Part shown: positions 18,128 to 51,682 of the stretch, one piece after another | Layout of the letters: every line of letters starts with the position of its first letter | Numbering within the stretch: position 1 is the first letter of the stretch | Assembly (NCBI GenBank): GCA_964016885.1 | Contig: OZ024744.1 | Location: 72,726,001 to 72,790,000 of the forward strand | DNA: 64,000 nt | Direction: 5' to 3' | Source of the DNA: Eledone cirrhosa | Taxonomy: Eukaryota | Notes under the pieces: generated by a model | What the model saw: only the letters and a program-made list of their open reading frames with translations | Told to the model about the DNA's origin: nothing | Databases searched by the model: none | Program-made: the position numbers and the translations under genes

Positions 18128-18731
18128 TATATATAAAGGTGCTGCTGGGGCAAAGGATGATAGATAAGACAACAAAATAATAGGGGTTTTTACCCAATAT
18201 ATTTCATCATGATATTTTGAGGTTAGAACTTTCTTTTCAAAGAAAGTTCTAACCTTGAAATATCACAATTAAATATATTATGTAAAAAAAACAAAAAAAA
18301 AACATTATTTTATTTTGGTTTATCATCCTTTAACCCAACATATATATATATTTCTATCACATTGTACAAGCTTTCTGAAGTTCTCATCAATTATTTATAA
18401 AATGTTTTCTCAATTGATTAGTATAATAAATAATTATATAAACCAATTAAAGATTTATCATGGAAGGTACAGTCACAGGATATCTCAGGATCAGTTCTCA
18501 GTAAACATTTCTCTTTCAGAAATTATGATGTTATCAGAGAAGAATAACCCCTTAAATGCGATGAGATATGTTGTAATTTGTACTTAAGGTGTTAACTGCT
18601 AAAATGTTTATTATAAATGACATATATATATATATAGTGGTAGAACACTGGAAGGTAATATCCTTAGTGGTAGAGCACTCAGTCCATGGGACGAGTTAGG
18701 TAGAAGTGGTTACACAACAGTTAGTTCACCA

Positions 18732-18773
18732 TACGAGAACAATTGTTTCACCTTAGCGGATCCTCAGCTCGTA
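18732..18773 (-). ncRNA. Minimal hammerhead ribozyme in pLTR
   Basis: TACGAG-CTGAGGA-tCCgctaaGGt-GAAAC-AATT-GTT/CTCGTA; perfect 6-bp stem I and palindromic CAATTG. Confidence 0.85.
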
Positions 18774-18920
18774 ATGTACATGGTTATACAAAACAGGAAG
18801 GACAACCATACGAATGCGCATGCGCAGAAACGATCACTTCACACAGGCAATACTAAATTGCGTGCGAGAGATGTAAGGGAGATAACTGCGAAAGTCCAAA
18901 AGTTAGGATGTTGTTGTAAT

Positions 18921-19358
18921 TCAATCCGGAGTTTTGTAGTTATGTAAGAGGTGTTTCCAGACGTGTGGACAATGTGTGAAGAATCCATTTCTCGTGTTTA
19001 GGCAATCACTATTGCGTAATCTCTTTAAAATATTTATTCGTTCATCAATACATAGTCCACACGACGGATTGCCCCTTGCGTATGGCTTGGACTTAGTGAT
19101 GGCTTTCCATTGAATGGAGTAGTTTATACTTGAGTCCTTGAGGAACCGTATGTGGATCACGAGTTTCATGGATGAACGTCTGTCTGGGTAACTAAAGGTC
19201 GACTGGTGGTTCAGGAAACGTTCCTTAAATCGGCCCTCAGCCATACCCACATAGGATTTGACCTCCTGTGGTTGATTTGGTCGATTGGAAGTGACCACAA
19301 CTTCATAAACTACAGCAGTTGTGTTGCATTGCTGTTGAAGCGGACAATCTTCGGGCAT
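18921..19358 (-). pseudogene. GIY-YIG endonuclease domain of a Penelope-like element (5'-truncated)
   Basis: CPL...C....VVY...YVG...FKERF.NH..F, W..I....PY....C.LC..E...I...LN.RN..F..CPH: typical PLE endonuclease C-terminus. Confidence 0.85.
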
Positions 19359-19616
19359 ACAGCAAGAGAACCCTAAACATGAGAAATTAATTCTTCACAC
19401 GTCCACACATCTGGAAACACCTGTTACATAACTACAAAGCTCCGGATTGAATTACAACAACATCCTAATTTTCTTATCAACTAGAAACTTTCGGACTTTC
19501 ACAGTTATCTCCCTTACACCTCTCGCACGCAATTTAGTATTGCCTGTGTGAAGTGACTGTTTCTGCGCATGCGCGTTCGTACGGTTGTCCTTCCTGTTCC
19601 GTATAACCATGTCCAT

Positions 19617-19659
19617 TACAAGCTGAGGATCCGCTAAGGTGAAACAATTGTTCTCGGTA
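19617..19659 (+). ncRNA. Minimal hammerhead ribozyme, inverted pLTR copy
   Basis: TACAAG-CTGAGGA-tCCgctaaGGt-GAAAC-AATT-GTT/CTCGGTA; stem I weakened. Confidence 0.75.
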
Positions 19660-19704
19660 TGGTGAACTAACTGTTGTGTAACCACTTCTCTCTCTCTCTC
19701 TCTC

Positions 19705-20045
19705 ATTTCATCATTTCATTTTACGTCCGCTTTTTTCCCTGCTTGCTAGGGTTGGACGGGAACTGATTCTAGCTTGATTTCTACAGCTGGATGCCCTTCC
19801 TAACAACAACCTCATTTACTGTGAGTGCTGGGTGCTTTTTTGCCGTGGCACCTCCACGACCACTTTACAGTGAAATGATATGGACCCCAGTCCCTATCAT
19901 CTCATTTCAACAGCTGAGTAAACTGGAGCAATGTGAAATAAAGTGTCTTGCTCAAGGAAACAACACATCACCCGGTCTGAGAATTGAACTCACAACCTTT
20001 CGATTGCAAGGCCAATGTTCTAACCACTAAGCCATGTGCCTCCAT
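19705..20045 (-). mobile_element. tRNA-derived SINE family B with RTE-type 3' tail
   Basis: Head GGAGGCACATGGCTTAGTGG..GAGTTCAATTC, central TCCTTGAGCAAGACACTT, 3' AGGAAGGGCATCCAGCTGTAGAAA..GGACGTAAAATGA. Confidence 0.85.
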
Positions 20046-20088
20046 ATATATATATATATATATATATATATATATATATATATATATC

Positions 20089-20486
20089 TCATCATCATCA
20101 TTTTACTCCCGCTTTTCCCTGCTTGCAAGGGTGGGACAGGTCCTATTCAGCACAGCATCTCTCCACTTGTCACGGTCCTTCGTCATCTCCTCCGTGAGTT
20201 TCAGCGATCTGAGGTCTACTCTCACACCTCCGCCCATGTTTTTCGTGGTCTTCCTCTGCTGCGTCTTCCTTCTACTGCGTCTTCCTTCTACTGCGTCTTC
20301 CTTCTACTGCGTTTTCCTTCTACTGGGATTTCTTGCCACTTCTTTACCCAGCTGTCATCCTCCATGCACATCACATGTTCATACCATCTCAGTCTTCTCT
20401 CCCGCACACCACAACTTATCCTTCTTATATACACTTTCTCTCTGAACTCGTGTATGCTTGGTCGATCACGCACATTGACAGTCGCA
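20089..20486 (-). mobile_element. RTE 3' fragment
   Basis: ERRLRWYEHVMCMEDDSWVKK on the minus strand; (ATC)n tail. Confidence 0.85.
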
Positions 20487-20685
20487 TATATGTGTGTATA
20501 TGTGTGTGTGTATATATATATGTGTGTGTATATATATATGTGTGTATATATATATATAGTGTAGGTAGTACGGTGAAATACCTGTGTTGGTACCAAATCA
20601 AGCACTCTATGCGCAGGCAGAGTGTATATAATAGAAAAAAACGAAGAAATTTCGTTTACATAGGAAAAATATTTATTGCATATCG

Positions 20686-49250: not shown

Positions 49251-50148
49251 AAAGATCAGGTAATGGCAATTCTCAAAATTGTTATGCAGCTATCATCACG
49301 TATATATGTATTTATGTATGCGTGTATATAGATGCATCTATATATACATGTATATGTATGTATAAATATATGTGCATATATATATAAATATACACATATA
49401 CATATATGTATATATATACATACATATATACAATCATACACACACACACACACACTCATACACATACATACATTATTGTCACAATGTAAAGTGTGTAAGT
49501 TGCTACTTATTTGTTGGTAAATGTGTCAAAAGACTTAATGAAAGCAGGGCAGTGACTAAATTAGCAGGAGAACTAAATTAGCTGAGAGTTCAAACAAAAC
49601 AACATAGCTTTTTGCAGAAGACAATAGTTAATTATATTTGGGTTAGGGAATGCCTCTTCAGTGCTGTCACATATGGAATGTTCAAAGACAAAAAAAAAGC
49701 AAAAAAGAAAAATAAAGAAAAGAAATTCTTCAGAGTGCTGTAATGAGACCTATTTAAATGCCATAGATAAGTAGTTTTTATAAGATGCTACCAAAAGTAT
49801 TTATTTGGTTGTACAACAGACATTTAATTTCTGTTTGTTTGTTTATTTGTTGGTTTGTTTATATGTTTGGTGGGGGATGACAGTGGGAGTTGTAGTGATG
49901 GTGGTGTTGGTGGTGGTAGGGTTTACACTTCCTTCTTTTTTTTTTTTGTAATATATTTTCTCATATATTGCTGTTGGTGGTGTTATTGTTAGTAGTAGCA
50001 GCAGACCAAAAATAATTTAATGATGTTGTCATGGGGGAATACTTCCTATTATTGTGTCTTTTATGCGTGCACATCTGTATATTTACACACACACACACAC
50101 ACACACACATACACATACACACACACACACATATATATAAGAATGAAA

Positions 50149-50345
50149 ATTTAATATAGAATTGGCTTCTACAGGACTAGAACTGTTTCATTTGTATAAT
50201 TCCTGATGATTTCATATGAATGAAATAGTTCTAATCCTGTAGAAGCCAATTCTATATTAAATCTTTGTTGTTGTCACTCTAGTTATGTATTGAGTACCTT
50301 ATTTACTGTGGTTACTCCTGATTTCAGTTGGGATCTACATCTATA
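50149..50345 (+). mobile_element. ~200-bp HHR fold-back micro-element, copy 1
   Basis: Arms 50149-50192 and 50219-50262; HHR TTC-CTGATGA-tTTCAtaTGAAt-GAAA-TAG..CTG-TA/GAA at 50200-50244. Confidence 0.78.
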
Positions 50346-50347
50346 TA

Positions 50348-50693
50348 TGGAGGCACATGGCTTAGTGGTTAGAGCATTGGCCTTGCAATCGAAAGGTTGT
50401 GAGTTCAATTCTCAGACCGGGTGATGTGTTGTTTCCTTGAGCAAGACACTTTATTTCACATTGCTCCAGTTTACTCAGCTGTAGAAATGAGATGATAGGG
50501 ACTGAGGTCCATATCATTCCACTGCAAAGTGGTCGTGGAGGTGCCACGGCAAAAAAGCACCCAGCACTCACTGTAAATGAGGTTGGTGTTAGGAAGGGCA
50601 TCCAGCTGTAGAAATCAAGCCAGAATCAGTTCCCGTCCCACCCTTGCAAGCAGGGAAAAGCGGACGTAAAATGAAATGATGAAATGATGATGA
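50348..50693 (+). mobile_element. Family B SINE
   Basis: Full head, central domain and RTE-like tail. Confidence 0.9.
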
Positions 50694-50711
50694 TATGTGT
50701 GTGTGTGTGTG

Positions 50712-50895
50712 TGGCTTCTACAGGACTAGAACTGTTTCATTCAAAGGAAATCATGGCTTTCCTGATGACTTCCTTTGAATGAAACAGTTCTAATCCTATA
50801 GAAGCCATTTCTATATTAAATTTTATATACACTCTACTAATGTATTGAGTACCTTACTGACTGTGGTTATTCCCAATTGAACTCGGGACTCACAT
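50712..50895 (+). mobile_element. ~185-bp HHR fold-back micro-element, copy 2
   Basis: HHR at 50753-50808: ATGGC-t-TTC-CTGATGA-cTTCctttGAAt-GAAA-CAG-ttctaatc-CT(A)-TA/GAAGCCAT; antisense arm at 50712-50754. Confidence 0.78.
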
Positions 50896-50994
50896 ATATC
50901 TCTATATATAAAAATATGCACACACACCCACATATATATATATATATAAATTTGGATTTATTTTTATATGTACATATATCACTCTAGTGGTGTT

Positions 50995-51250
50995 CATCAT
51001 CATTTCATCATCATTTCATTTTACGTCCGCTTTTTCCCTGCTTGCAAGGGTGGGACTGATTCTGGGGCTTGATTTCTACAGCTATCCAGCCCTTCCTAAC
51101 ACCAACCTCATTTCTACAGCTGAGTAAACTGGAGCAATGTGAAATAAAGTGTCTTGCTCAAGGAAACAACACATCACCCGGTCTGAGAATTGAACTCACA
51201 ACCTTTCGATTGCAAGGCCAATGCTCTAACCACTAAGCCATGTGCCTCCA
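50995..51250 (-). mobile_element. Family B SINE (internally deleted)
   Basis: Reverse complement of 50348-50693. Confidence 0.88.
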
Positions 51251-51483
51251 TTTATATATATATATATATATATATAGAGAGAGAGAGAGAGAGAGAGAGA
51301 GAGAGAGAGAGAGAGAGTAAACCGTGTGTCTAAAATTACAAGGGTTGAAAAACTACATTTGTTTGAAATATTTAACCAAGAAGCAGACTCAGTATTTTTA
51401 TACTTGGAGCTTAATAGTTACAGGGTTCCAATTGGAGTTTTAACTCTAATTTTCATATATATATATATATATAGTATAGAGAA

Positions 51484-51560
51484 TGAGGAGTCAGGTTCAA
51501 TCTGTAACAGGTCCTGCCTCGAGCAGATTGACGAAGAAACATATGTAATATGTTAATAAA
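51484..51560 (+). ncRNA. 5'-truncated hammerhead-like motif with extended stem II
   Basis: TGAGGA-(46 nt with TCAATCTG/CAGATTGA)-GAAAC-ATAT-GTA..AATAAA; C3 and the 5' strand of stem I are missing. Confidence 0.55.
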
Positions 51561-51682
51561 TTGTGATTTGATACATTACTTATTCATATACTCTGCTCTG
51601 CATGAGCATTGAGTGTTCAACTGGCATACCACCTACAGACACATTTAGCTGCAACCCTACAGCAACTATATATATATATATC

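Follow-up and report, generated by a model that had tools for sequence, protein, structure and literature searches.

A bulged hairpin in Hydra-clade Penelope-like elements, a candidate signal for internal reverse transcriptase starts

What keeps one short hairpin recurring in retroelement fragments whose ends cannot otherwise be aligned? The question is raised by a 64,000-nucleotide (nt) stretch of DNA from Eledone cirrhosa (assembly GCA_964016885.1, contig OZ024744.1, positions 72,726,001 to 72,790,000 of the forward strand), here called the window, which is repeat-rich animal DNA and in which a first-pass annotation, made from the letters alone, had listed eleven occurrences of a hairpin associated with hammerhead ribozymes and Penelope-like elements (PLEs). 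The reverse transcriptases (RTs) of PLEs are the sister group of telomerase. We find the hairpin to be real and, as far as we can tell, undescribed: a cis element that belongs to an already known group of retroelements, the Hydra clade of PLEs. It stands twice in the leaders of these elements, where, on the comparison of sequences presented here, it likely binds the element's own protein and sets an internal RT start a few bases to its 5' side. The only in vitro study of a PLE reports two internal starts and no defined RNA signal (PMC11167929).

The hairpin in the window and in outside loci

Every one of the eleven annotated strings is found where it had been placed (Table 1; coordinates are window positions, and A and B denote the 5'-proximal and the second hairpin of a leader pair). 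Written as RNA, the consensus is a bulged hairpin, RCUC-Y[stem-loop]R-UH-GAGY-RCU, which pairs at all ten complete sites. Each of them has a lower stem of 4 bp (RCUC/GAGY) and, beyond a bulge in the 3' strand, a further stem with 1-5 pairs or more. What had been described as a variable spacer does vary in length but is no mere spacer, being this second, upper stem. The register with a 2-nt bulge pairs at nine of the ten sites, the hairpin at 18696 having a single U as a 1-nt bulge. A compensatory exchange between ACTC/GAGT and GCTC/GAGC had also been proposed; the outer pair is indeed paired at all ten sites (A-U at eight, G-C at two), but the exchange rests mostly on the window, and the strongest covariation lies in the upper stem.

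The hammerheads reported upstream carry an intact core at six of the eleven sites (Table 1), where they are predicted to be of type I and to lie in the pseudo-long terminal repeat (pLTR), as in the Hydra clade. At the remaining sites the core is mutated, decayed or half complete (25002, 51590 and 38852), and the upstream scan found none at 39166, where the copy is 5'-truncated, and none convincing at 27491, an occurrence annotated as partial that reads by eye as a decayed copy. The placing of the motif tens of nt before a terminal TA tract is borne out, the distance from hairpin start to (TA)n being 59-104 nt at nine sites; site 25002 is not in this range because the scan halted at a TA run within its loop. 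The ten element ends are mutually unalignable, except those at 50276 and 50831, which align at 75%.

The strict pattern RCTCT..YATYGAGY has eight distinct matches in the window, against a mean of 0.75 and a maximum of 2 in 60 block-wise dinucleotide shuffles. As this pattern was derived from these same sites, and a looser descriptor, based on structure only, falls short of significance within the window (15 matches against a shuffled mean of 8.85 and maximum of 15), the window by itself is suggestive rather than decisive and the real test lies in outside data.

We utilised for this 92 loci picked by endonuclease alignment only and independently of the motif. Of these, 80 are the best among 456 confirmed metagenome stretches, and 12 come from genome bins and are presumably DNA of the host. 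The latter (L081-L092) are animal-type retroelements whose contigs belong to three bacterial genome bins or assemblies of symbionts, where they are presumably contamination from the host. Setting aside the 33 loci without a hammerhead call, the window-derived descriptor is found 25-70 nt past the cleavage site at 37 of the 59 hammerhead loci and in 18 of 4500 control windows from open reading frames (ORFs). One further match, at L088, spans the TA tract and was dropped as spurious; among the other loci six end with the contig, nine meet a TA-rich tract first and six are without the motif. Enrichment behind hammerheads, which the annotation had named as a check, thus holds in loci chosen by protein only.

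The same is true of covariation. When candidates are selected on the anchors alone, pairing not being required, 78 of 90 distinct ones have a Watson-Crick first inner pair in the register of the 2-nt bulge, against 6/90, 4/90, 12/89 and 18/86 in four other registers; this pair is C-G in 45 and U-A in 33, and the next pairs use all four types. MAFFT misaligned hairpins of variable length, and a covariance model was therefore built from 20 outside hairpins of near equal length. It gives 109 matches, and 104 of the 106 matches in the loci lie outside the ORF span, which makes up half of the bases. In the fitted alignment 98% of cells are paired with 118 double changes, a result reached in none of 500 shuffles, and slid controls pair at 9-52%. 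Turned on the window, the model places annotated sites at ranks 1-4 and 11 of 17 matches and misses the other six. The outer pair is G-C in 89 of 96 aligned rows, so that the A-U form belongs mainly to the window's organism. The bulge U is invariant (97/97), as is an A (99/99), and the second bulge base is variable; the pair preceding the bulge is paired in 93 of 93 and a U-A pair stands second in the next stem in 96 of 97. Family clusters number 69 at 80%, a rough figure, one cluster chaining several families together. Covariation of the upper stem is strong, and the motif, judged by comparison, is real.

It is not a known RNA element of the kinds considered. A selenocysteine insertion sequence (SECIS) is rejected, as it had been by the annotation: the AUGA/GA non-Watson-Crick core is absent from the alignment, and there is no Rfam SECIS match among the matches listed. 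None of the best 150 of 169 Rfam matches in the window falls at the sites or at gathering score, and nine outside loci gave eight weak matches, all elsewhere than the hairpin. The Helitron-type 3' hairpin was set aside informally, the layout of hammerhead, endonuclease and fold-back indicating PLEs.

Hydra-clade elements, their leaders and their insertion ends

The marks of the Hydra clade are a C-terminal GIY-YIG endonuclease with CxxC and CxH, a type I hammerhead and (TA)n, together with an inverted 5'-truncated copy and a tail at one end (Craig et al. 2021, PMC8557442). The element at 18696 has the same organisation, in the order decayed endonuclease, type I hammerhead, hairpin, about 40 nt and (TA)n, with an inverted truncated copy upstream. 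Its endonuclease remnant has 743 relatives at E up to 1e-10, and the residues CGLC..E..N..CPH correspond to CxxC and CxH around a conserved E and N that are invariant in homologues. A C-terminal GIY-YIG domain followed by a pLTR is found for this element only. Insertion into (TA)n, as in the clade, is also seen. Of the linker CxCX5C the window copy retains CX5C, its first C being lost; the linker is intact in relatives. The RT part is not in the window; in 21 relatives R37 and W38 and D120 and K121 (the RWK and DKT motifs) are invariant. Pfam had no family for the remnant, a word-based search for longer proteins and a search by sequence for a solved PLE structure found none, and viral contigs yielded no relative. 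The data sets listed as containing the element include no RNA set. The other window sites are short pieces of element 3' ends, which come from at least eight additional, unalignable families and which we assign to the clade by layout alone.

In intact elements the hairpin is double. Of the 31 ORF starts preceded by 170 nt or more of sequence, 23 have two copies before the ATG (19 of 24 families), and the leader reads hammerhead, 34-61 nt, hairpin A, 59-83 nt from start to start, hairpin B, 15-42 nt, ATG. The hammerhead-to-A spacing of 34-61 nt holds in 35 of 36, the remaining value belonging to a B copy. A and B differ in stem and loop and keep the core. Six of the eight misses are decayed or truncated by eye. 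The Hydra-type leader without the motif at L037:1603-1804 has a second hammerhead-like core before the ATG.

Published consensus sequences hold the motif as well: it is present in the coral Hydra-2_Amil and, by eye, in the sea cucumber Hydra-1_Ajap, where the twin hairpins stand at the 5' start, and Hydra-2_Ajap. The copepod consensus has degenerate forms, and the octopus and Hydra-1_Amil consensus stop, by eye, before the expected site. PMC8557442 does not describe the motif and does not contain the word 'hairpin', yet the motif is present without change in three of its six new consensus sequences and in a degenerate state in a fourth. The word was likewise not found in PMC7229834, PMC4209133, PMC3846280 and bioRxiv 10.64898/2026.07.22.740005. 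The annotators knew of no description, and we found none in the open literature searched; subscription papers, such as that of Arkhipova 2006 on the tail, could hold one.

The motif had been supposed to be shared across divergent PLE-like families. It is shared across unalignable families of the Hydra clade, but does not appear to be PLE-wide: five exact words gave three matches in the consensus files of Naiad and Chlamys, no match being a complete hairpin at the end of an element, and the motif was not found in the PAc start region. To judge by these comparisons it seems to be a property of the Hydra clade and not of PLEs at large.

The insertion ends stand in a fixed relation to the hairpins. 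Ends of the (TA) type close to a hammerhead or hairpin number 42. A relative whose sequence continues into a hairpin allows 17 of them to be mapped, and at 16 of these (A 10/11, B 6/6; some share a family) the (TA)n begins 6-11 nt 5' of the hairpin. The ends usually fall at a UA-rich word 5' of A or B, and since the templates mostly have TA at -6 (37/90) or -8 (29/89) the junction lies within short homology to the target. The six inverted copies of the window stop at -6, -4, -6, -11, -24 and -24 and never enter the hairpin; its direct copies end 59-104 nt past the hairpin start, approximately the A-B spacing less the offset. Both ends recur in public data for the 18696 family, where run X1 shows the (TA)n junction at 18701 in 41 contigs and beyond the distal tract in 68, run X4 has one end of each type and raw reads of run X8 show the distal end. 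The 3' ends of this family are fixed, its 5' truncations scattered, and read depth piles up at the 3' end. The annotation's suggestion of a signal for RT recognition or 3'-end definition gains comparative support from this fixed offset. As a separate observation, L032:1190-1250 is a perfect fold-back centred inside hairpin A, as if the template had been switched within the hairpin.

A candidate start signal and its alternatives

Comparison establishes the structure of the hairpin and its fixed relation to both element ends; protein binding and initiation we infer. In the mechanism that we propose, the protein would cut a (TA)n target and dock on one of the hairpins of the sense RNA; the DNA end so produced would anneal to the UA word 6-10 nt upstream of the hairpin, prime and be extended. 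A start before A would give a tail-less copy, the inverted copy, and a start before B a copy with hairpin A and a tail, so that all window sites would be A copies tens of bases before (TA)n. The A-B spacing would then be the PLE tail; both cDNAs might copy the stretch 5' of A either by strand displacement on one RNA or from two RNAs. The tail is about 60-80 nt here, against 30-40 bp for PLEs in PMC8557442.

The closest experimental parallel is the Anolis Poseidon PLE, in which two in vitro RT starts on sense RNA bound the tail (PMC11167929). Poseidon is alike in having two internal starts that bracket the tail and an AT-rich target, but it belongs to another clade, its starts lie in an AC-rich stem-loop inside the ORF, no repeated motif is reported and the RNA determinant was bounded by truncation only. 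Stringent LINEs (long interspersed nuclear elements) such as ZfL2 also offer a likeness, for there template choice depends on a short stem-loop to which the protein of the element binds (PMC4176376). The ZfL2 stem-loop, however, is single, lies within the copied 3' end and is conserved in its loop, whereas the Hydra hairpin occurs as a pair, each copy standing 3' of its own start site in sequence that is not copied from there, and is conserved in its bulge. A stringent-LINE 3' stem-loop was accordingly rejected as an identity for it, there being two copies, each 3' of an end site.

An alternative that we consider improbable is a signal at the level of DNA, in the cDNA or an extruded genomic copy, from which an endonuclease or repair would trim or resolve an intermediate 6-11 nt away. 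Craig et al. (PMC8557442) attribute the tail to endonuclease-mediated resolution, the D. virilis Penelope tail is needed for endonuclease recognition of plasmid DNA (cited in PMC11167929), and folding is no worse on the antisense strand; a few loci also have an A.C outer pair, which would be G-T on the other strand. Copies that end before A or B, however, do not contain the hairpin that marks that end, which must therefore be read on the template. Duplex recognition would moreover need no covarying upper stem, internal wobbles favour the sense strand (G-U 5 against A-C 0, weak evidence on strand) and the tail ends are RT starts in vitro (PMC11167929).

No better are the prospects of the hairpins as protein-binding operators for translation control or RNA packaging, the ends gathering close by solely because UA-rich stretches anneal to (TA)n. 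The position of B, 15-42 nt before the ATG, and the A/U-rich bases upstream would suit such a role. A/U-rich stretches abound elsewhere in the leaders, but 16 of 17 ends lie within a 6-nt band ahead of one or other hairpin, and the UA word keeps a constant distance to it; operators would also be compatible with a start signal, not exclusive of it. It is very unlikely that the template is antisense RNA with each hairpin a stop, or template-boundary, signal as in telomerase RNA. An antisense, self-primed PLE template has been proposed (PMC3846280) and the modelled Hydra ORF is closest to telomerase RT, but fixed 3' ends, scattered 5' truncations and the 3' pile-up of depth fit initiation, the in vitro starts were on sense RNA (PMC11167929) and hammerhead and motif share one strand. 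That the hairpins have no function, having arisen by chance or as passive relics of an ancient duplication, is hardly credible and largely refuted by the positional and covariation data: the window pattern is post hoc, the loose descriptor not enriched and the fold energies unremarkable, but a near-invariant core with a covarying upper stem persists in unalignable families of distant animals, and A and B keep that core while differing in stem and loop.

Against the start signal as we propose it, or its reach, must be set several observations besides the loose descriptor. The minimum free energy fold with flanks shows the hairpin at 3 of 10 window sites (z -2.2 to +1.0); folded in isolation, outside hairpins form in 41 of 77, the antisense strand folding better in 42 cases against 23, and an unfiltered count of internal wobbles gives G-U 11 against A-C 8, so that the strand evidence is thin. 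The covariation loci are related to one another and the statistics ignore kinship. The six motif-less loci comprise two one-base variants, one wrong hammerhead call and three that are unexplained (L052, L061 and L082), and among the leaders L004 has one hairpin and L037 none. Protein evidence for the clade exists at just 1 of 11 window sites. No hairpin B was seen in the window or among the listed loose ends of the 18696 family, and the twin layout is thus carried over to the window's organism from other animals. Of the 42 ends 25 have no relative to map them, and one mapped at -2. The Poseidon sequence, as far as displayed, has no RCUC/GAGY core. Lastly, the evidence for the mechanism is sequence comparison.

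How the protein might read the hairpin is suggested by analogy. The invariant core may fold as an arginine-sandwich bulge with a U.A-U triple, an idea to which we give slightly less than even weight. The bulge pyrimidine directly follows a Watson-Crick pair, which covaries between purine and pyrimidine, and the A-U pair that would be the triple partner stands second in the next stem. In human immunodeficiency virus TAR and 7SK SL1 (PMC6189040) a bulge U likewise comes after a Watson-Crick pair and is followed by G, A, G facing C, U, C, where pairs beyond A27-U38 are our inference, and the single-U variant at 18696 matches the 7SK arginine-sandwich motif ASM4 (C62, U63, A65-U44). The loop closes the other helix here, a permuted topology, and the setting is unrelated; this is a resemblance only. 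As for the protein, the best fold matches of the Hydra ORF model, which is a confident one, are telomerase RTs, and in it the RMRWK motif (R37 invariant, R35 in 17 of 21) is part of a long N-terminal helix; that this helix reads the bulge is a guess. More tentatively still, two arginine-sandwich hairpins might dock two PLE protomers, each priming one strand of the cut (TA)n, a programmed twin priming that would yield the inverted copy plus tail.

As a minimal candidate start signal the motif makes exact predictions: a start 6-11 nt 5' of each hairpin and a tail whose length is set by the hairpin spacing. Intact Hydra ORFs, for example L017:528-2648, are available on which to test it. If true, it would explain the long-puzzling PLE tail in the Hydra-clade elements of marine animals. 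On the reading with programmed twin priming, a hairpin of about 25 nt together with its UA word would give a telomerase-related RT-endonuclease a start signal that is portable. The hairpin also serves as a 25-nt marker for annotating short Hydra-clade fragments that lack protein sequence.

Features of the window

Table 1. Positions of the Hydra-clade remnants and hairpins in the window
Feature	Position	Strand	Remarks
Decayed C-terminal GIY-YIG endonuclease of 5'-truncated Hydra-clade PLE	18924..19373	-	profile E 1e-43; sole Hydra protein remnant in the window
Predicted type I hammerhead of 18696 element	18732..18773	-	intact core 18767, cleavage after 18738
Hairpin A, single-U bulge variant, 4-bp upper stem	18677..18696	-	
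Tail, proximal end site (18701-18702) to distal end at (TA)n	18637..18700	-	
Inverted 5'-truncated copy, stops 6 nt before hairpin A	19381..19689	+	
Hairpin A (UA bulge)	20604..20623	-	hammerhead, enlarged stem II, intact core 20771; short inverted copy 20799-20848
Inverted copy of 25002 element, stops 4 nt before hairpin	24063..24416	-	
Further forward copy, ends at same (TA)n as 24063..24416 copy	23999-24047		
Hairpin A (G-C outer pair, UC bulge, long upper stem)	25002..25047	+	mutated hammerhead core 24930
Probable decayed hairpin A, then tail and (TA)n	27481..27499	+	by eye
Hairpin A (UC bulge, weak upper stem)	28191..28224	+	hammerhead, enlarged stem II, intact core 28041
Hairpin A in short fold-back insertion	38829..38852	-	inverted copy 38869-38983 stops 6 nt before hairpin
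Hairpin A, 5-bp upper stem; copy truncated downstream of own hammerhead	39142..39166	-	
Hairpin A (G-C outer pair)	45840..45861	-	intact hammerhead core 45957
Hairpin A	50276..50295	+	intact hammerhead core 50203; inverted copy 50146-50255
Hairpin A	50831..50850	+	intact hammerhead core 50762; inverted copy 50712-50807
Hairpin A, 5-bp upper stem	51590..51614	+	decayed hammerhead upstream

The complex insertion at 23999-25080 has forward and reverse copies that flank one (TA)n, each stopping a little short of hairpin A; after these comes a direct copy that carries a tail. Three hammerheads of unalignable families have an enlarged, probably branched stem II, at 20690-20771 (-), 28041-28120 (+) and 51485-51545 (+), in which the words GAGTCAGG and CAGATT are common to all three. 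Between hairpin A and the element end, most tails carry one more stem-loop, which is specific to the family (for example 18637-18670, 38785-38820, 39070-39125 and 50305-50335), with no shared sequence seen among them. A further hammerhead-like core at 5413 (+) has a 6-bp stem I and no hairpin match downstream.

Unrelated to the motif are decayed ORFs of non-LTR retrotransposons at 40052-42489 (+), 55363-56400 (-), 59431-62476 (+) and 30450-33350 (-), by eye RTE-, CR1- and L1/Tx1-like. Positions 1207-3320 hold a 25-bp tandem satellite of about 77 copies.

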